Source: Flavobacteriaceae bacterium
GTDB lineage: Bacteria; Bacteroidota; Bacteroidia; Flavobacteriales; Flavobacteriaceae
NCBI GenBank assembly: GCA_027065775.1
Contig: JAMONN010000062.1
Location: 1-30,493, forward strand
Length of the DNA stretch: 30,493 nucleotides
Direction of reading: 5' to 3'
Within the stretch, counting starts at the first letter, position 1; the number at the start of each line of letters is the position of its first letter. Positions 6,563 through 13,834 of the stretch are shown here, one piece after another. A model generated the notes under the pieces. The model made no database searches and was not told the origin of the DNA. It was given only the letters and a program-made list of their open reading frames with translations. Made by a program: the position numbers and the translations under genes.

Positions 6563-8143
6563 TTACAAGGTATAAAAAAGTTCTAAGACATCAATATTTT
6601 GTTGCTTGTTTTTAGAATGAAATTTCTGTAAAGTAGCGTTATCAATCAATTGAATGCCGCCAATACGAATGTGACAATTAAAAATACTACTATTTTTAAC
6701 CAATAAACCGATTTCATTTTGTGTGAATTTCTTGTTATGAGAGGATAAAATAATATCTAACCTATTTGTTTCAGTAGCTTCTTTTAAATGTATTTTTATT
6801 GAAAATCCTTTACTGTCTGTTTTTTGAAACCAGTTTTTTGTAATTAATCCTTCATTTGATTTCTTGTAAAAAACACTTTTTTCTAATTTGATTTTAGGAT
6901 TTAAAACTTTTAAAATGTTCAGAAAGTTATTATTAAATAAAATACTTTCTATTTTAGGAATTTCATCAAATAAATCAGTAATAAACTCCATTTTAGGAGT
7001 TTGAATTTTAAAATAAGCATTTAATAACTGATTCATTTTCTTAATCTCTCGCAAACTAAAAACCTGATTCAAAATTGCAGAACCTTTATATTTTAGTTTA
7101 TTAGACATATCTATTAATCCTTTTTCTGAAATTTCGGTTTGATAAGATTCTGTCGCATACTTTAAGCGCTGTTTGATTTTTCTTTTTAAAAAAGGTGGCG
7201 AAATTACCCGAATGCCATCACCTAAACCTAAAATCTCTTTTTCTAATTCAAAATTATGTTGCACATTTAAAGAAATAGTAATGCCAAAATTGTCTTTTTT
7301 AATCAGTTTTTGCGAAGCGTGAAAAGGTTTAGTTTGGACATAAGGCGCATGTTTATTATAAACAAAAAGTATGATTTCTTCGGTTTTTAAATCCGGATTT
7401 ATAGAAACGCCAATCGCCTTACTAAAATAATGTTCTAAGTCATATTTACTGTTGTATTTAAACTCAATTTCACTTTCTTGTAAGTCAATAATTCGATCTA
7501 AAGCTAAATTTACCAAATGCTCTTGCCCGTCTCTAATACCAATAACAAACCAACGATTTCTAAATTCTTTTAGTAGATAAGCATGAAAGTCAAAAGTTGC
7601 CGCTTGTCTTGCTTTAAAGGATTTGTAGGTTATTTTAATTGCTTTTTTAGTAATTATTGTTTGGTACAATGTGTCTAAAAAATTTAATCCTTTTAAGTTT
7701 TCATTCTTTTCAAATTCAATTACTGGTTTGGTTCTTGTCTGATTAGAATATACATGATCTTCCAATTTTTGAATAACACCATTTAAAGCATCAAAATGCG
7801 AAAAACCTTTAAATTGTTTTAAAAACGCAACGGATTCCGACAGTTTTTCTAAATCTTGACTACTAATTGGTAGATTGGTAATGCTATATTTTTCTTCTTC
7901 GTAGGTATAATATTTACGATCAACTACAATAATTGGTGCGTTGTAACCTAATTTGTCACTTCGCATATTTTGAATATCTAATTGAACAGTCCGTTTACTT
8001 ACATTACAATCTTTTCCTTCGTATTCGTATAAAGCGTCTGAACATTCTTCTATTAAATCGTCTAAAGTCCATTTTCTAAACCTGTTTTGCAAACATTTAT
8101 CAATGGTTTTATATCTAATTAATGCGTTTTTATTTAGTGCCAT
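6563..8143 (-). CDS. WYL-domain transcriptional regulator (HTH-WYL-WCX) with an extra ~190-aa C-terminal domain of unknown function
   Basis: The N-terminus MALNKNALIRYKTIDKCLQNRFRKWTLDDLIEECSDALYEY is the hallmark HTH start of Bacteroidetes WYL regulators. A WYL-like core (HAYLLKEFRNRWFVIGIRDGQEHLVNL) and a WCX-like segment (GLGDGIRVISPPFLKRKIKQRL) follow. At 526 aa it is much longer than typical ~320-aa members. Confidence 0.7.
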   Translation of the reverse strand: MALNKNALIRYKTIDKCLQNRFRKWTLDDLIEECSDALYEYEGKDCNVSKRTVQLDIQNMRSDKLGYNAPIIVVDRKYYTYEEEKYSITNLPISSQDLEKLSESVAFLKQFKGFSHFDALNGVIQKLEDHVYSNQTRTKPVIEFEKNENLKGLNFLDTLYQTIITKKAIKITYKSFKARQAATFDFHAYLLKEFRNRWFVIGIRDGQEHLVNLALDRIIDLQESEIEFKYNSKYDLEHYFSKAIGVSINPDLKTEEIILFVYNKHAPYVQTKPFHASQKLIKKDNFGITISLNVQHNFELEKEILGLGDGIRVISPPFLKRKIKQRLKYATESYQTEISEKGLIDMSNKLKYKGSAILNQVFSLREIKKMNQLLNAYFKIQTPKMEFITDLFDEIPKIESILFNNNFLNILKVLNPKIKLEKSVFYKKSNEGLITKNWFQKTDSKGFSIKIHLKEATETNRLDIILSSHNKKFTQNEIGLLVKNSSIFNCHIRIGGIQLIDNATLQKFHSKNKQQNIDVLELFYTL

Positions 8144-8293: not shown

Positions 8294-9796
<1,503 letters not shown>

Positions 9797-9802
9797 TTTT
9801 AT

Positions 9803-9832
9803 ACCTGTTAATTAATTTAGCAGGTTTTTTTA
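9803..9832. terminator. intrinsic terminator between the convergent RtcB-like and toxin genes
   Basis: acctg / ttaattaatttag / caggt followed by ttttttt. Confidence 0.55.
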
Positions 9833-10120
9833 TTCCATTATTTTATTTGGATGTTGACTTGTATTAAAAACACGCATAATATAAATGATATCATCAGTAA
9901 TAAAATAAACCATTTTGAAACTCCATTTCACAATAAATCGAATATTATCATTATTAAAACTAGGCTCTTTTGGGTAAGCAAACGGAAAAATTTTAAGAGA
10001 ATTTGGTAACTCTAATAATGTATTTAAAACTTTAATTGCATTTTGAGGACTTTGTTTAGCAATATAACTTACATTATTATTTAAATCTTGATGTGCTTTT
10101 TTATCCCAAATTATTTTCAT
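9830..10120 (-). CDS. type II toxin, RelE/ParE family
   Basis: 96 aa. IIWDKKAHQDL ... IRFIVKWSFKMVYFITDDIIYIMRVFNTSQHP matches the RelE/ParE fold pattern. It overlaps the upstream small gene by 20 nt, as is classic for toxin-antitoxin operons. Confidence 0.65.
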   Translation of the reverse strand: MKIIWDKKAHQDLNNNVSYIAKQSPQNAIKVLNTLLELPNSLKIFPFAYPKEPSFNNDNIRFIVKWSFKMVYFITDDIIYIMRVFNTSQHPNKIME

Positions 10121-10355
10121 TCAAAATATTATTTCTAACTTCTTTGGTAGTATATAAAGTTGCTGTTCCGTTTTTTATTGCCATAATACTTTTATTCATT
10201 TCTTTAATATATTGACTTTCGTAAATGGGTTTGCCTTTAGCATATCCAACAATATTCTCGCTTTCTATAAGTGTTTTCAACTTATTTAATAGCAAATCAT
10301 CAGAAATTCCTAATATTTTTTGTGCTAATGAAATTTTTAAAGTTTCAGTACTCAT
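10101..10355 (-). CDS. putative cognate antitoxin
   Basis: 84 aa. It sits upstream of and overlaps the toxin gene. It is not clearly Phd/ParD-like, so the family is unassigned. Confidence 0.45.
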   Translation of the reverse strand: MSTETLKISLAQKILGISDDLLLNKLKTLIESENIVGYAKGKPIYESQYIKEMNKSIMAIKNGTATLYTTKEVRNNILNENNLG

Positions 10356-10403
10356 AACTATTCTTCAATTTTTATAAATGCAATATACAATAATAATTTT
10401 ATT

Positions 10404-10613
10404 ACATTTGCAAAAAATTACACAGTAATTCAATAATGAAAACAATATTAACACAAAGCAGCTTACTACACGGAAATTATCCGTGTGTTCGTTTTTCGAA
10501 TAGTTTCGAAAAAGGCAGATGCTTTGTGCTTAAAAAACGACAGATTTAATAAAATTTTTCTGTAAATAATATAAAAACACAAAGCATTCAATTAAATTGG
10601 ATGCTTTTTTTTG
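10404..10613 (+). ncRNA. candidate small RNA (~190 nt) with its own -7 box and an intrinsic terminator
   Basis: A TAcaTTTG box lies at 10404-10411. There is no ORF. Long-range complementarity links cacaaagca (10452-10460) with tgctttgtg (10519-10527). Internal hairpins include acacggaaattatccgtgt. The terminator is agcat / tcaattaaattgg / atgct followed by T8 at ~10578-10613. Confidence 0.3.
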
Positions 10614-10919
10614 GTCTAAATAGTAATAAAATAGTAGAAATAACGATAAAAAATTCCGAATCAAGTTCGGAATGACAATAATAAACAATAAATTTAAAAA
10701 TATTCTAAAAATTAAAAATAACTAAAATAAAATCTTGAACATAAAACCAATTGAGAGACAGACAGTTGAAAAAATGTAAAAATTCGCTAAAATGCGAAGA
10801 GGAAATCTATTGCCTAAATTTAATTTAACTGTTTGATTATCAATAAAATAAATTAATTTTTTCTTGTTTAGTAATATAATTTGTCTTTATATTTGCACCG
10901 GAAATAATTTATAAAAAAA

Positions 10920-11027
10920 ATGAAACAATTTAATTTACATATAGAACTGCCGAGTTTATCATTACAACGATTTTATAGTTGTGAAGAATCGCAAATAAAA
11001 GATATTGGAGAATGTTTATTAGAATAA
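10920..11027 (+). CDS. 35-aa small ORF (MKQFNLHIELPSLSLQRFYSCEESQIKDIGECLLE) with its own promoter and terminator; alternatively a non-coding sRNA
   Basis: A -7 box TAtaTTTG lies at 10888-10895 and the ATG at 10920. The TAA stop is followed by the terminator gcatctc / ctaacc / gagatgc plus a T-run (11051-11079). Confidence 0.25.
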   Translation: MKQFNLHIELPSLSLQRFYSCEESQIKDIGECLLE

Positions 11028-11092
11028 CTATGTAAAATACATATTTATAAAAGCATCTCCTAACCGAGATGCTTTTTTTATGCAATTAATTT

Positions 11093-11179
11093 GGAAGAGC
11101 AAGCCAATTGGTGGTGGCCGCAGTTTTGAACATTGTTAGGAGATAATGACTCGTGTGGGTTCGATTCCCACTTCTTCCG
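11093..11179 (+). tRNA. tRNA-like gene with a long variable arm (class II-like) and a defective anticodon stem; possible pseudo-tRNA
   Basis: The acceptor pair GGAAGAG / TTCTTCC, the D-stem GCCA / TGGC and the T-arm GTGGG-TTCGATT-CCCAC are intact. No 5-bp stem with a 7-nt loop can be drawn around ...cgcagttttgaacattg.... Coordinates are approximate to within 1 nt. Confidence 0.35.
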
Positions 11180-11189
11180 CAAAAAAAAT

Positions 11190-11276
11190 GGAGAGTAGGC
11201 AAATATTGGTTTGTTGCGCTTGTTTGCTAAACAAGTCTATGTAAAAGTAGTGAAGGTTCGATTCCTTTATTCTCCG
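11190..11276 (+). tRNA. tRNA-Ser (anticodon GCT)
   Basis: Acceptor GGAGAGT / ATTCTCC, D-stem GCAA / TTGC, anticodon stem CTTGT / ACAAG with loop ttGCTaa, a 16-nt variable arm and T-arm GAAGG-TTCGATT-CCTTT. It is AT-rich. Confidence 0.8.
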
Positions 11277-11288
11277 CAATTAAATTAA

Positions 11289-11371
11289 GGAAATGTTGAG
11301 CAATTGGTTGGCTCACCTGACTGTAAATCAGGTCTGTAAAAAGCATGTAGGTTCAAATCCTACCATTTCCA
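11289..11371 (+). tRNA. tRNA-Tyr (anticodon GTA)
   Basis: Acceptor GGAAATG / CATTTCC, D-stem GAGC / GCTC, anticodon stem CCTGA / TCAGG with loop ctGTAaa, a long variable arm, T-arm GTAGG-TTCAAAT-CCTAC and discriminator A. Confidence 0.85.
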
Positions 11372-11435
11372 CAAAGCACTGAAATAATTCAACTGTCTCT
11401 TGAGTTGTTTGTTTTAAATAATAATCAGTGCTAAA

Positions 11436-11507
11436 TCTGAGAAGATAACGTTGGTAGTTTACTCGCCTTGGACGCGAGAGGTTGCAAGTTCGATTCTTGC
11501 TTCTCAG
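11436..11507 (+). tRNA. tRNA-Pro (anticodon TGG)
   Basis: C1:G72 acceptor CTGAGAA / TTCTCAG (typical for bacterial tRNA-Pro), anticodon stem CTCGC / GCGAG with loop ctTGGac, T-arm GCAAG-TTCGATT-CTTGC and discriminator A. Confidence 0.75.
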
Positions 11508-11512
11508 ACAAA

Positions 11513-11585
11513 TGTTCCGTTAGTATAATGGTTAGTACGCTTGACTTTCTATCAAGATATAAGAGTTCGATTCTCTTACGGAATA
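11513..11585 (+). tRNA. tRNA-Glu (anticodon TTC), unusually AT-rich (~34% GC), with G1·U72 and a pyrimidine at position 37
   Basis: Acceptor GTTCCGT / ACGGAAT, D-stem GTAT / GTAC, anticodon stem CTTGA / TCAAG with loop ctTTCta and T-arm AAGAG-TTCGATT-CTCTT. Confidence 0.65.
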
Positions 11586-11590
11586 CAAAT

Positions 11591-11663
11591 GCAGCAATGG
11601 CGGAATGGTATACGCGTTGGTTTTAGAAACCAAATTTTGAAAGTTCGAGTCTTTCTTGCTGTA
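11591..11663 (+). tRNA. non-canonical class-I tRNA with anticodon TAG (a Leu anticodon but no long variable arm), with G1·U72
   Basis: Acceptor GCAGCAA / TTGCTGT, D-stem GCG / CGC, anticodon stem TTGGT / ACCAA with loop ttTAGaa, a 5-nt variable loop, T-arm GAAAG-TTCGAGT-CTTTC and discriminator A. Confidence 0.55.
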
Positions 11664-11668
11664 CAAAT

Positions 11669-11748
11669 TGACTTGTGATGTAATGGTTAGATATAAGAAT
11701 TTGACTCTTATTATAGAGGTTCTTCCAAATTTCGGACTTTCAAGTCAA
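11669..11748 (+). tRNA. tRNA-Gln-like (anticodon TTG, U1:A72 as in bacterial tRNA-Gln) with an aberrant, enlarged T-arm region; possible pseudogene or structural variant
   Basis: Acceptor TGACTTG / CAAGTCA, anticodon stem TAAGA / TCTTA with loop atTTGac. There are 30 nt between the anticodon arm and the 3' acceptor strand instead of ~22, and no canonical TTCGA T-loop (ggttcttcc instead). Confidence 0.4.
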
Positions 11749-11755
11749 TAAATAT

Positions 11756-11830
11756 GGTGTTATTGTTGAAACTGGTTTATCATAGAAGGTTGTGAACTTT
11801 CCGTTACGAGTTCGAGTCTCGTATAACACC
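11756..11830 (+). tRNA. tRNA-His (anticodon GTG), with the encoded G-1
   Basis: G-1 is followed by acceptor GTGTTAT / ATAACAC and discriminator C73. Anticodon stem GAAGG / CTTTC with loop ttGTGaa and T-arm ACGAG-TTCGAGT-CTCGT. Confidence 0.8.
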
Positions 11831-11942
11831 CAAAATAGAAATATAGTTTAATTAGATAAAACCTTGGTTTACGACATCAAAAATGCGAGTTCTCCCGAAG
11901 TTTCGGGATTGCTATTTCTACAAAAAATAAAAATAATTTTTA

Positions 11943-11963
11943 TTACGCAAAAAGATTGCGTAA
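11943..11963. promoter_or_regulatory. operator-like perfect inverted repeat TTACGCAA-aaaga-TTGCGTAA, copy 2
   Basis: Perfect 8-bp arms with a 5-bp spacer. The flanks (aataatttttatta...) match copy 1 at 8225-8254. Confidence 0.45.
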
Positions 11964-12006
11964 CAGATTAAGTTATTTGTATCATAATTAAATACAACTA
12001 GTAATT

Positions 12007-12036
12007 CTCTGATGTTTAGTGGATGAAACATCAGAG
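12007..12036 (+). promoter_or_regulatory. conserved leader hairpin, copy 2 (perfect 11-bp stem)
   Basis: ctctgatgttt / agtggatg / aaacatcagag. It lies at the same 44-45 nt distance from the palindrome as copy 1. Confidence 0.45.
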
Positions 12037-12238
12037 ATTGTTTGATAATTAATAAGTTCTTTAAAATATAATTTCAATTTGGTTTGAAATGTAAAATTTT
12101 TCCGTTAAAACGGAAAACAAGGTAGAAAAAAGTAATTAGAAAACCTGATACGTGTTTCTGAATAGCACTATGGTATTGTACTTAATAAGTAACAATATGC
12201 CGTTTCGGTTATTTTTGTTTTACCACACCTTGTAGGTC

Positions 12239-12404
12239 GAAGGTTCGATTCCTTCTCTAGTTTATTCTAGATAGTTCAGCGGTTAGAACAACAAGTTGCT
12301 TGTTACAGGTTCGAGTCCTGTTTCCAATACTTAACAATATTTGTTGGAATAACTCAATTGGTAGAGTAGCACTACACTTTCAATGTAGGTTCGAAGAAGA
12401 TCAC
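12239..12404 (+). pseudogene. cluster of degenerate tRNA remnants (T-arms and D-arms without functional acceptor or anticodon stems)
   Basis: (a) 12239-12255, gaaggttcgattccttc, has 16 bp identical to the tRNA-Ser T-arm at 11258-11273. (b) ~12266-12329 has a perfect D-arm (gttc-agcggtta-gaac) and T-arm (acagg-ttcgagt-cctgt), but its anticodon arm is 15 nt and the acceptor strands do not pair. (c) ~12346-12404 has a D-arm (actc-aattggta-gagt) and a truncated T-loop (ggttcgaag). Confidence 0.4.
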
Positions 12405-12736
12405 TTCTAAAAAGATCGATGAATTTAAGGTTCATTTAATGAAGTTGATTACTTCTAAAAATAATCAAAACCAAAAGAAATCTAAAACAAGTCGGTTATT
12501 ACGTTTACGCAATAACACTCTTAAAAAAACCTTGAAGTTTAAGGATTCCGTACTATTAATTAGTATTACTTTTTAAAAGAATTGTTTTGTACAACTACAA
12601 ACTTGTAGTTTTATAATTCACTTTTGTTTAATAACTAATATTAGGCAATGTTACTCAATTAAACTTCCGTATTTAAAAGAGGGTTTGTTTTAGATGTCTT
12701 TTACAAAAACGAATAATAAAATTAAATATAAATAAA

Positions 12737-13834
12737 ATGAAAAAAGTAAGAATTAACGAAGGTAAAATAGGTTTGGTTTTTAAAAACGGAAACTACAAAA
12801 GAGTATTAACTAGTGGTAACTATTGGTTATTGTTCTCTGAAAAAGTATACATATACAATTTAAGTACTGAGTTTTTTGCACCAGTAAAATTAGAATTATT
12901 GTTGCAAAATATTGATTTAGAGAATAAATTAAATATTATAGAGGTATTGGACAACGAAATTGTTTTAAAATATGAAAACAAGATTTTTAAAGGTGTTTTA
13001 AGAGCAGGTAAATATGCATTTTGGAAAAGTAAAATCAATAATTACACTTTTACAAAAGTAGATTTAAGTAAGGTTGAAATTACGGAAACTATTAGTAAAT
13101 CTGTTTTAAAAAAAGCAGAGTTATTGCAATATTTAAGAGTTTACGTTGTAGAATCTTACGAAAAAGCAATTTTGTTTTTAAATGGTAAAATACAAGAAGT
13201 TTTAAAAAGTGGTACATATTATTTTTGGAAAAACGATGTGAATATTAAAATTGAAAAAGTGGATTTAAGACAAATTCAGTTAGAAATTTCAGGTCAAGAA
13301 ATGTTAACCAAAGATAAAACCGCTTTAAGAATCAACTTTTATGCTCAATATAAAGTAGTTGATATCAATAAAGCTTTATTAGATAATAAAAATTTCGAGA
13401 AGCAATTGTATATTTTAATTCAATTAGTTTTAAGAGAATATATTAGTGCATTAACTTTAGATGAATTGTTAGAAAACAAAATAACTATTGCAAATAAAGT
13501 TTCTGATGATGTTGGCAAGAAAGCAATGACTTTAGGTGTTCAGATTTTAGATTCTGGTATTAGAGACGTTATTTTGCCTGGTGAGATTAAAGATATTATG
13601 AATCAAGTATTAATTGCTCAAAAGAAAGCACAAGCCAATGTGATTTCTAGAAGAGAAGAAACCGCAGCAACAAGAAGTTTGCTAAACACTGCAAAATTAA
13701 TGGAAGATAACGCGATGTTATTCAAATTAAAAGAAATGGAATATGTCGAAAAAATTGCAGATAAAATTGGTGAAATTACAGTTGCTGGTAGCGGAAATGT
13801 AGTGGAGCAATTAAAGACTATTTTTAGTAAGTAA
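12737..13834 (+). CDS. SPFH/band-7 (prohibitin/stomatin-like) protein with an N-terminal extension containing a repeated motif
   Basis: The C-terminal half carries the SPFH signature (GVQILDSGIRDVILPGEIKDIMNQVLIAQKKAQANVISRREETAATRSLLNTAKLMEDNA). The N-terminal ~135 aa contain three ~35-aa repeats of G.Y.FWK...KVDL. Confidence 0.75.
   Translation: MKKVRINEGKIGLVFKNGNYKRVLTSGNYWLLFSEKVYIYNLSTEFFAPVKLELLLQNIDLENKLNIIEVLDNEIVLKYENKIFKGVLRAGKYAFWKSKINNYTFTKVDLSKVEITETISKSVLKKAELLQYLRVYVVESYEKAILFLNGKIQEVLKSGTYYFWKNDVNIKIEKVDLRQIQLEISGQEMLTKDKTALRINFYAQYKVVDINKALLDNKNFEKQLYILIQLVLREYISALTLDELLENKITIANKVSDDVGKKAMTLGVQILDSGIRDVILPGEIKDIMNQVLIAQKKAQANVISRREETAATRSLLNTAKLMEDNAMLFKLKEMEYVEKIADKIGEITVAGSGNVVEQLKTIFSK

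Follow-up and report, generated by a model that had tools for sequence, protein, structure and literature searches.

A probable spare-tRNA cassette with a putative leader-peptide attenuator in an RtcB island of a Flavobacteriaceae genome

The stretch of DNA analysed here, referred to below as the window, comprises 30,493 nucleotides of a Flavobacteriaceae genome (GenBank assembly GCA_027065775.1, contig JAMONN010000062.1, positions 1 to 30,493). Between a gene for an RtcB-family RNA ligase and one for an SPFH/Band-7 protein it contains a dense array of tRNA genes, preceded by a short open reading frame (ORF) and an intrinsic terminator and followed by a tRNA-like non-coding RNA (ncRNA); a gene for a WYL-domain protein lies on the far side of rtcB. 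We lean, with moderate confidence, towards viewing the array as an accessory cassette of spare tRNAs that forms part of this WYL/RtcB/tRNA-like ncRNA/SPFH island and would be controlled by ribosome-mediated attenuation. The members of the array, together with one structured spacer, are as follows.

11093..11180, + strand: tRNA-Ser(UGA), class II, with a weak anticodon stem (ARAGORN; Rfam 29.3 bits)
11190..11277, + strand: tRNA-Ser(GCU) (ARAGORN; Rfam 43.1 bits)
11289..11372, + strand: tRNA-Tyr(GUA), of the bacterial class II type (ARAGORN; Rfam 60.6 bits)
11373..11436, + strand: structured Tyr-Pro spacer, outer stem GCACTGA/TCAGTGC around the hairpin CAACTGTCTCTTGAGTTG
11437..11509, + strand: tRNA-Pro(UGG) with C1-G72, A73, A37 and the loop CTTGGAC (ARAGORN; Rfam 36.6 bits)
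11514..11586, + strand: tRNA-Glu(UUC) with U37, G1.U72 and A73 (ARAGORN; Rfam 64.2 bits)
11591..11664, + strand: short (class-I length) tRNA-Leu(UAG), 74 nt, with G1.U72 and A73 (ARAGORN; Rfam 65.3 bits)
11668..11748, + strand: tRNA-Gln(UUG)-like gene with a 15-nt T-loop (uncalled by ARAGORN and Rfam; recognized by alignment)
11757..11831, + strand: tRNA-His(GUG) with an encoded G-1 opposite C73 (ARAGORN; Rfam 46.3 bits)
11836..11921, + strand: tRNA-Arg(ACG)-like gene with the hairpin TCCCGAAGTTTCGGGA in the T-loop after GTTC (Rfam 17.9 bits)

Seven tRNA genes are called by ARAGORN at 11093-11831, all on the + strand and head to tail, with no further tRNA in the 30.5-kb window, and all seven reach the Rfam RF00005 gathering score of 29 (range 29.3-65.3 bits). 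A preliminary description of this DNA, made from the letters alone, had proposed a dense array of eight members; the two programs bear out the array, and a ninth member, the Arg(acg)-like gene at 11836-11921, lies just outside the range then considered. Altogether, seven intact and two probably disabled genes are packed into 0.83 kb, none of them encodes CCA, and the spacers measure 3-64 nt instead of the 10-70 nt first given. The GC content of the array tRNAs, initially put at ~34-42%, runs from 36 to 50% (mean 42%) against 29% for the locus. Only two members, Glu and Leu(UAG), carry the G1.U72 pair that had been ascribed to several, while the pyrimidine reported at position 37 of Glu is present, as a T.

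For comparison, 15 more RtcB loci were drawn from reference genomes and assemblies and set beside the window (16 in all, designated by L numbers). The first gene, Ser(UGA), had been described as having a broken anticodon arm. Its stem is indeed weak and G.U-rich, with two G.U pairs, but it can still form, the gene is recognized as Ser(tga) at 29.3 bits, and its homologue in L004 shows compensatory changes in this stem. An assignment to tRNA-Sec was rejected, the anticodon being UGA and not UCA and the score 39.7 bits against a tRNA-Sec threshold of 47. The earlier identification of a Gln-like gene holds: apart from its enlarged T-loop (15 nt versus 7), it aligns with the intact tRNA-Gln(ttg) of L127, L131 and L135. 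The Arg-like gene aligns in the same way with intact Arg(acg) genes of L127, L131, L004 and L135, and L133 has an insertion at the equivalent site. Both genes are probably disabled in the window, to judge from these alignments.

The region upstream of the first tRNA was compared over nine cassette loci, namely the seven array-bearing RtcB loci and the metagenome contigs L011 and L014. Its features in the window are listed below.

10436..10607, + strand: unit 1, a 37-codon ORF (10436-10549) followed by an intrinsic terminator (10581-10607; terminator scan)
10748..10768, + strand: hairpin CAATTG-AGAGACAGA-CAGTTG with the loop GAGACAG, in 9/9 array loci
10888..10895, + strand: candidate Bacteroidota-type -7 promoter box TATATTTG; a conserved ...TTTGCACC box occupies the same place in 9/9 loci
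10920..11027, + strand: leader ORF of 35 codons, MKQFNLHIELPSLSLQRFYSCEESQIKDIGECLLE (ORF search, conserved layout)
11006..11018, + strand: 5' strand of the antiterminator, TGGAGAATGTTTA, lying in the final codons of the leader ORF and pairing with 11049-11060 (AAAGCATCTCCT)
11051..11080, + strand: intrinsic terminator AAGCATCTC-ctaacc-GAGATGCTT plus a T-run, hairpin dG -11.7, 12 nt before the first tRNA

In each of the nine loci the end of an ATG ORF, 35-44 codons long, is separated by 23-28 nt from a terminator, a placement attained by about 1% of shuffles per locus, and the terminator keeps its position throughout, ending about 10-20 nt before the first tRNA. Since in the window it lies 12 nt upstream of the first tRNA and leaves no room for a promoter, the array can be expressed solely by read-through. 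The leaders of the window and of L127 differ by an in-frame 9-nt indel and by many amino-acid changes, a pattern of divergence that is typical of leader peptides.

The 5' arm of the terminator has an alternative partner. In every locus, a fold computed for the leader minus the terminator 3' arm joins the 5' arm to the final codons of the ORF, the dG of this antiterminator being -9.7 to -16.8 kcal/mol against -7.8 to -13.6 kcal/mol for the terminator, that is, comparable or stronger in most loci. The duplex of the window reaches -11.2 kcal/mol (shuffle P 0.0095). Measured against dinucleotide shuffles, P lies between 0.0005 and 0.077 per locus, and Fisher's combined P over eight loci is 4e-11, a value that overstates the independence of the loci because they share ancestry. 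Covariation is three-way, the leader strand changing in step with both arms of the terminator, with compensatory changes in L131, L133 and L135. The leader strand and the terminator 5' arm read as follows.

Window: GGAG-ATG / CATCTCC
L133: GAAGATG / CATCTTC
L135: GCGGATG / CATCCGC
L131: GGAG-GTG / CACCTCC

The last nucleotide of the stop codon lies 9 nt beyond the pairing strand of the leader in the window, and 1-13 nt beyond it across loci, so near that a terminating ribosome would cover the strand.

The codons of the leader mirror the tRNAs of the array. With codon sets defined by generous wobble rules and including the disabled members, 17 of the 34 codons of the window leader are read by array tRNAs, against a background of 0.268 (P 0.003); in all eight testable loci such codons make up 28-58% of the leader and 17-29% of long ORFs of the same locus, an enrichment of about twofold with P from 1.7e-6 (L131) to 0.083 (L011). 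The enriched codons occupy the central part of the ORF, ahead of the pairing strand. L011, whose array consists of Phe, Asp and Glu, has the leader run FFDECFDD, and where an array includes Arg(ACG), all 13 arginine codons in the leaders are CGN (13/13). The window leader also uses CTG, CCG, TCG and CGA, which are rare codons for a genome of 29% GC.

These features can be joined into a scheme of control. A promoter at about 10890 would drive the 35-codon leader ORF at 10920-11027, rich in codons for the tRNA species of the cassette itself. In a cell with healthy translation the ribosome would reach the stop codon and mask 11006-11018, the terminator at 11051-11080 would form, and transcription would halt before the first tRNA. 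Should the matching cellular tRNAs be depleted or cleaved, the ribosome would stall in the middle of the leader, 11006-11018 would pair with the terminator 5' arm, and read-through into the array would follow. The spare tRNAs would then restore decoding while RtcB, accompanied by RlaP in sister loci, repairs the broken tRNAs. The scheme supposes that the leader is translated, that read-through is conditional and that the tRNAs are charged and used, and it takes the natural trigger to be tRNA cleavage or depletion rather than amino-acid starvation. RtcB seals 2',3'-cyclic-phosphate/5'-OH breaks. RlaP extends damaged RNA 3' ends by one or two nucleotides (PMC12776372). Both activities fit a response to tRNA damage. 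In its boldest form, which we put forward tentatively and find somewhat harder to accept than to doubt, the proposal is that a mixed-codon leader attenuator mirroring the anticodons of the array acts as a previously undescribed, direct ribosomal sensor of tRNA depletion or cleavage, switching on diverged, possibly nuclease-resistant spare tRNAs within a WYL/RtcB response to tRNA damage in Bacteroidota.

The layout resembles the attenuators of the trp, his, phe, leu, thr and ilv operons in its short ORF with an excess of regulatory codons, its terminator and its alternative helix that a ribosome could mask. Each of these elements is found here, the ORF before the terminator in 9/9 loci, a covarying and mutually exclusive helix, and the codon excess in 8/8. 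Unlike in the classical cases, however, the regulated genes are tRNAs, the regulatory codons stand for 6-10 amino acids that mirror the downstream tRNAs, no clear 1:2 'pause' hairpin was identified, and a second, similar unit lies upstream. No description of tRNA-gene control by leader-peptide attenuation was found in the searchable literature. What appears to be new is the leader-peptide attenuator with codons mirroring the downstream tRNA set, whereas the island type has already been predicted. A search of the leader with Rfam at E<=10 for a T-box, riboswitch or other known RNA family gave only a weak Phe_leader match at the terminator.

The second unit, unit 1, has an 11-bp alternative pairing between its ORF and the 5' arm of its terminator, and its internal hairpin covaries between loci. 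The shuffle P of this pairing is 0.001 in the window, L127 and L011 and 0.02 in L004, and it is not significant in four others. ORF and terminator are present in 8/9 array loci, none having been detected in L133; from this layout, unit 1 may be a first attenuator in tandem or a small RNA. Between the two units, the hairpin with the GAGACAG loop stands 170-215 nt upstream of the leader ATG in 9/9 loci. This loop is the exact complement of CTGTCTC (11395-11401) in the hairpin (11392-11409) of the Tyr-Pro spacer, itself a conserved element whose outer stems covary in L003, L004, L131, L133, L135 and L014. The two loops could contact each other over a long distance in the primary transcript, or the two elements could be inverted copies of a protein-binding site.

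Several points weigh against attenuation of a spare-tRNA cassette. All regulation is deduced from sequence, and the statistical support is uneven: besides the shared ancestry of the loci and the generous codon sets mentioned above, the antiterminator of L003 is weak and the codon enrichment of L011 taken alone has a P of 0.08. A general terminator scan did not list the hairpin at 11051-11080, and an identical 26-nt terminator (AGCATCTCCnnnCCGAGATGCTTTTT; window 11052-11077) follows unrelated genes in other Bacteroidota contigs. The count of the -7 box motif is not above chance, and Bacteroidota mRNAs do without Shine-Dalgarno sites, which makes translation of the leader uncheckable from the sequence. 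No tRNA-targeting nuclease was identified, PADLOC recognizing a generic WYL domain only and hence no known defence system. The two disabled members, together with the insertions and 3'-end repeats of sister arrays, speak of ongoing decay. Finally, loss of tRNA and amino-acid starvation would look alike to such an attenuator.

The copies of AGCATCTCCnnnCCGAGATGCTTTTT elsewhere, at L010 8050-8075, L012 1071-1096 and L013 1761-1786, amount to an unusual degree of sequence conservation for a terminator. The hairpin was rejected as a module-specific signature: a metagenome scan with AGCATCTCCnnnCCGAGATGCTTTTT returned mostly L010, L012 and L013, and only L011 and L014 were relevant. A scan of viral contigs with the 15-mer CAACTGTCTCTTGAG gave 95 matches, about as many as expected by chance and some of them adapter-like at contig ends; these were disregarded.

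In a competing explanation, the cassette is a regulated supplement for host-rare codons (CUN, CCN, CGN and others) that answers an ordinary shortage of charged tRNA, as in amino-acid starvation or growth transitions, and has nothing to do with RNA damage. Leu-UAG, Pro-UGG, His, Gln and Arg-ACG do cover the whole CNN row, of which a genome at 29% GC makes little use, the leader holds the rare CTG, CCG, TCG and CGA, classical leader-peptide attenuators sense the supply of charged tRNA, and the cassette of L011 occurs without rtcB in a 6.4-kb contig. Yet an extra tRNA is of no help when amino acids are limiting, the designs of these tRNAs are unlike those of typical host tRNAs and needless for simple dosage, and the linkage of 7/9 cassettes to a repair module at 1.3-9 kb would go unexplained. 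The supplement role agrees with the presence of an attenuator, but we regard it as distinctly unlikely.

The distribution of the array bears on its accessory nature. Homologous arrays occur in 7 of the 16 RtcB loci (the window, L127, L131, L003, L004, L133 and L135) and are missing from the other nine (L128, L129, L134, L136, L001, L002, L005, L006 and L007). L128 and L129 lack the array even though their RtcB is 82-85% identical to that of the window; there and in L130, which is grouped with L129, the gene order is WYL, ncRNA, SPFH, RtcB with zero tRNA genes. In L127, by contrast, whose RtcB is 87% identical and which occupies the same chromosomal site, Gln(ttg) and Arg(acg) are intact where those of the window are aberrant. 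Pro, Tyr, Leu-UAG, Gln, His and Arg-ACG recur from array to array as a core, joined by Ser, Cys, Asp, Glu and Phe as variable extras, and the order and core are kept across loci whose RtcB is only 69-77% identical. Seven of the nine cassettes lie within 1.3-9 kb of an RtcB/WYL (± RlaP) repair module, two RlaP nucleotidyltransferase genes being present in L001, L003 and L004. The exceptional L011 has a leader and a Phe/Asp/Glu cassette with no RtcB in the whole 6.4-kb contig, and in L014 the first tRNA is present only as a degraded remnant and ARAGORN calls none.

Because of this presence in 7/16 loci, the varying content and the phage-type designs discussed below, the array is to be seen as an accessory cassette and not as a core operon. 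Gln(UUG) and Arg(ACG) are indispensable yet disrupted here, so working copies must exist elsewhere in the genome and the array is redundant. The preliminary description had likewise set the array apart from a core tRNA operon, and the absence from close RtcB loci, the variable content and the two disrupted members agree with it; nor are these the sole conserved copies for their anticodons, since the array is missing in L128, L129 and other relatives and Gln and Arg are disabled. That it is nevertheless an ordinary housekeeping tRNA operon seems to us scarcely credible. Its chromosomal setting among housekeeping genes, the seven members that pass both Rfam and ARAGORN and a tRNA GC above that of the locus would suit such an operon, but not its absence from the equivalent loci of close relatives, the need for other copies of Gln and Arg, the strong terminator 12 nt upstream with no promoter room, or the several non-canonical or phage-type designs.

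The tRNAs are under structural selection. In the short Leu(UAG), which has a Leu-type D-arm, A73 and a 5-nt variable loop, 99.5% of the cloverleaf cells are paired over seven array and four phage copies, 11 of the 20 pairs have changed on both sides, and this level of pairing was reached by 0/500 shuffles; G1.U72 is kept in 9 of the 11 sequences. The aminoacylation identity elements are retained as well, with G-1:C73 in His, C1-G72/A73 in Pro, G73 in Ser and long variable arms in Ser and Tyr.

Such conservation has to be set against another view, in which a tRNA cluster derived from a phage or other element landed beside rtcB by chance and is now degenerating there without function, with the ORF and terminator as unrelated neighbours. 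Signs of decay are plain enough: 2/9 members of the window are disrupted, sister arrays have anticodon-loop insertions, truncated genes and tandem 3'-end repeats, the Rfam scores of Ser-UGA, Pro and Ser-GCU are low, and presence across loci is patchy. A relic would hardly keep its order and core among loci with RtcB 69-77% identical, acquire compensatory stem changes, retain a conserved and covarying leader ORF, terminator and antiterminator in nine loci, or preserve odd loop nucleotides such as U37 of Glu in divergent genes, and we consider this origin quite improbable.

Several designs are nonetheless shared with phage arrays, namely the short Leu(UAG), the combination of U37, G1.U72 and A73 in Glu, and low GC. 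Leu(UAG) of the window shares 85.7% identity with a tRNA from T5-like Vibrio phages, and Leu genes of 74-77 nt are frequent in the phage arrays of IMG/VR. The Glu design recurs in L127, L011 and three of the six phage Glu(UUC) genes examined, the loop CTTTCTA of the window Glu is also that of L127, L011 and the phage loci L022, L023 and L031, and U37 of Glu is conserved among otherwise divergent genes. A37 is found in both Pro(UGG) and Leu(UAG) of the window. Bacterial tRNAs that decode CCN and CUN normally have G37 (m1G37). In Leu(UAG) position 37 is A in all seven bacterial array copies and G in all four phage copies. As the GC content of the host rises from 29 to 37.5%, that of the array tRNAs rises from 42 to 51%, compared with 57-64% in two stand-alone Bacteroidota tRNAs, a small sample.

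The array thus resembles phage tRNA arrays (T5-like, jumbo) in being dense and head to tail, low in GC and devoid of CCA, and in its Leu with a short variable arm and its Glu with U37/G1.U72; it differs in lying on a bacterial chromosome without phage genes and in the A37 of Leu-UAG where phages have G37. The phage or mobile-element profile drawn in the preliminary description accordingly stands as regards the designs, while no phage or classical mobile element is present; the low GC that it read as a phage-like sign is indeed shared with phage arrays, but part of it tracks the AT-rich host. The comparison with phage tRNA sets that it had suggested yields shared designs, with near full-length similarity for Leu-UAG only. 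From these patterns, the cassette looks like a long-resident accessory set with phage-type designs and not like a recent phage fragment. The atypical designs may confer resistance to nucleases, and the short Leu, the U37 of Glu and the A37 of Pro and Leu are candidate features for evading tRNA-targeting toxins. The link to anticodon nucleases proposed at the outset is circumstantial, being drawn from the adjacent RtcB, WYL and tRNA-like RNA and the RlaP of sister loci; neither a nuclease gene nor a target was identified.

The same oddities would also suit tRNAs with no part in translation, which would instead draw off tRNA-cleaving toxins as decoys or sponges, or assist RtcB and SPFH as RNA cofactors or scaffolds, much as has been proposed for Y RNAs and the band-7-associated tRNA-like RNA. 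U37 in Glu, A37 in Pro and Leu-UAG, and the T-loop insertions are expected to impair decoding, and the array sits between rtcB and the unit of tRNA-mimic ncRNA and SPFH. A sponge role has been suggested for cyanobacterial array tRNAs (PMC8421152), and tRNA-like cofactors for RNA ligation have been hypothesised (10.1101/312249). On the other hand, identity elements for aminoacylation are kept in His, Pro, Ser and Tyr, the anticodons are strictly conserved and matched by the leader codon bias, which fits decoding, and the dedicated tRNA-mimic RNA is a separate and much better conserved element. Decoys or cofactors are in our opinion unlikely, and a translating set of spare tRNAs is preferred.

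The other features of the island are listed below.

6563..8143, - strand: WYL + WCX protein of 526 aa (Pfam WYL E 1.4e-8, WCX E 1.8e-7), divergent from rtcB
8369..9796, + strand: divergent RtcB-family 3'-phosphate/5'-OH RNA ligase of 475 aa (Pfam RtcB E 3.8e-35)
9830-10355, - strand: ParE/RelE-family toxin (96 aa) and putative antitoxin (84 aa), between rtcB and the array
10355-12736: non-coding stretch of 2.4 kb that houses the array
12225..12400, + strand: two tandem permuted tRNA-like units, each consisting of T-arm, capped acceptor hairpin and D-arm (recognized by eye)
12737..13834, + strand: SPFH/Band-7 protein of 365 aa (Pfam Band_7 E 1.4e-31)

A Pfam scan of the 27 window ORFs marks the stretch as chromosomal, with the housekeeping genes dprA, hflX, tsaB, proC, purK, cydAB and alaS. 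Upstream, the island is flanked by dprA, a gene of the endonuclease/exonuclease/phosphatase family, hflX, a TolC-like gene and tsaB, and downstream by proC, purK, cydAB, a DEAD-box helicase gene and alaS. Neither phage gene families nor a TROVE (Ro60/Rsr) domain were found among these 27 ORFs. The idea that the window is a phage or prophage was dismissed on account of the housekeeping genes and of an RtcB scan of IMG/VR that came back empty; outside the tRNAs, a phage match was obtained for rtcB only, with that of Tenacibaculum phage PTm1 (70.8% nucleotide identity).

Aligned with the structures 2epg, 4dwr and 1uc2, the RtcB protein keeps the catalytic motifs DIxC, GNHF, HHGSRG, HAKGAT and HGAGR, and with them the catalytic metal-binding residues and the guanylylated histidine. 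It has >4900 homologues at E<1e-100, mostly in Bacteroidota, the nearest coming from Crocinitomicaceae, Fluviicola and other Bacteroidota. The WYL gene, presumed to encode the regulator of the island, is in the equivalent position in 13 of the 15 other RtcB loci; it and rtcB are nearly constant across loci, joined by SPFH and the tRNA-like RNA in the closest relatives. The SPFH gene is directly beside rtcB in L128 and L129/L130 and within the shared island in L127. The toxin/antitoxin pair is absent from the sister locus L127 and is therefore a separate mobile addition.

The tRNA-like units, which escaped the preliminary description, lie inside a conserved leader of ~700 nt ahead of the SPFH gene. 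Over four loci these ~700 nt have a mean column identity of 78%, with compensatory changes in the tRNA-like arms. The Rfam YrlA model (RF02553) matches 12285-12396 with 35.4 bits (E 2e-5), below its gathering threshold of 69 bits, and the equivalents in L127, L128 and L129 score 33-40.6 bits, in each case over the tRNA-like core of the model only; the ncRNA of the window fits this model better than it does a plain tRNA. From this, 12225-12400 is predicted to be a band-7-associated tRNA-like or YrlA-like RNA and a partner of RtcB and the SPFH protein.

A repair system of RtcB, Band-7 and a tRNA-like RNA ('b7a-tRNA') was predicted by Burroughs & Aravind 2016, as summarised in 10.1101/312249. Its components are all present here: ligase motifs, a linked Band-7 gene and an adjoining tRNA-like ncRNA. 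As far as that summary describes them, the b7a-tRNA systems share with this island an RtcB with intact motifs, a Band-7 neighbour, a tRNA-mimic ncRNA directly upstream of the Band-7 gene, a patchy and laterally spread distribution and a WYL-type regulator; they are summarised with a single tRNA-like RNA, whereas here there is a multi-gene array of true tRNAs with leader/terminator control. The Salmonella rsr-yrlBA-rtcBA operon combines Ro60, Y RNAs and RtcB, with RtcR sensing damaged tRNA (PMC7790460). It, too, pairs RtcB with a tRNA-mimic ncRNA and is thought to respond to tRNA damage; unlike it, the present island has no Ro60/TROVE, RtcA or RtcR/sigma-54 and has a WYL regulator and SPFH instead. 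A Y RNA/Ro60 assignment would thus face a sub-threshold YrlA score and the absence of an adjacent TROVE gene.

The nearest precedent for the proposed control comes from the long tRNA arrays of cyanobacteria, such as the Anabaena trn operon (PMC8421152; PMC10272220), which are turned on under translational stress and share their regulation with rtcB (PMC8421152). L-arrays are defined by at least 20 tRNA genes at a density of at least 2 per kb (PMC4758250); the present array reaches the density but, with 7 intact and 2 disabled genes, not the number, and shares their patchy, redundant distribution. Common to both are horizontally spread, non-essential extra tRNAs linked to rtcB; L-arrays are normally silent, and back-up and sponge roles have been proposed for them. 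Cyanobacterial L-arrays comprise 20-43 genes, and their control acts on the promoter through direct repeats and the repressor TrcR, whereas the present arrays have 7-11 genes, are found in Bacteroidota and have an apparent leader-peptide attenuator.

Much of the conflict between bacteria and phages turns on tRNAs, which are cut by anticodon nucleases, replaced by copies that phages carry, and mended by RtcB-type ligases. To our knowledge, sensing by the cell of particular missing tRNAs is known in only a few cases. If the scheme outlined above is true, sensor and response would be self-contained, the ribosome testing a defined set of tRNAs on the leader and directly gating the spare copies. 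Classical attenuation would then extend from amino-acid biosynthesis to tRNA homeostasis, and the predicted RtcB/Band-7 systems would gain a physiological output that can be tested. A cultured carrier of the cassette exists in Crocinitomix catalasitica (GCA_000621625.1), where it lies on JHXV01000023 at about 11550-13040 in L135 coordinates; another complete genome with the cassette is OZ252050.1.

Some further observations concern the sister arrays. Their Tyr, Ser-UGA-like and Gln-like tRNAs have insertions of 17-60 nt in or beside the anticodon loop (L004 14992-15123 and 15299-15385; L131 15084-15218; L133 about 12150-12300; L003 20975-21095), two of which begin with (C/A)CCGAGC right after the anticodon; the window array has no such insertions. 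The interrupted tRNAs, which could have either spliced introns or junk, adjoin a gene for the type of ligase by which archaea and eukaryotes join tRNA halves, and they raise the possibility of protein-dependent splicing or reassembly of tRNAs in bacteria. After the 77-nt Pro(tgg) gene there are tandem repeats of ~85 nt, each unit consisting of a hairpin and a copy of the tRNA-Pro 3' end (L004 14744-14985; L133 12583-12890; L131 15034-15080 and 15529-15550; L135 12257-12335); they suggest that a tRNA 3' end was duplicated several times over, in the manner of integration sites. Small palindromic TCCCGA..TCGGGA hairpins follow the T-loop GTTC of the Arg-like genes in the window and L133, and further copies interrupt a Ser-like gene and the anticodon arm of a Gln-like one (window 11893-11908 and 10653-10673; L133 12283 and about 13545; L004 1890 and 15330). 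They may represent a small invasive palindromic element that disables tRNA genes; a mobile element specific to the arrays is unsupported, the copies being few and similar hairpins occurring elsewhere in these genomes.

Other observations concern the proteins and a possible operator. About 200 C-terminal residues of the WYL protein (6563-8143) have no Pfam match; its counterpart in L004 has a PhyH-like dioxygenase domain in the C-terminal part, and several other loci have a short form of 340 aa. Ahead of the ncRNA-SPFH unit, at 11944..11965, lies the inverted repeat TTACGCAA-aaaga-TTGCGTAA, kept as TTACGCAA-N5-TTGCGTAA in L127, L128, L131, L004, L133 and L135, whether or not the locus has an array; it could serve the WYL regulator as an operator. 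In Crocinitomix-type loci SPFH is replaced by a RING-domain protein of ~750 aa (NCBIfam NF041916, 127 bits, below cutoff), encoded at L004 16222-18465, L133 14331-16583, L134 11695-13944 and L135 13494-15737. Its gene is preceded by other repeated tRNA-like modules, which include a Lys(UUU)-like gene with an insertion of ~80-150 nt.

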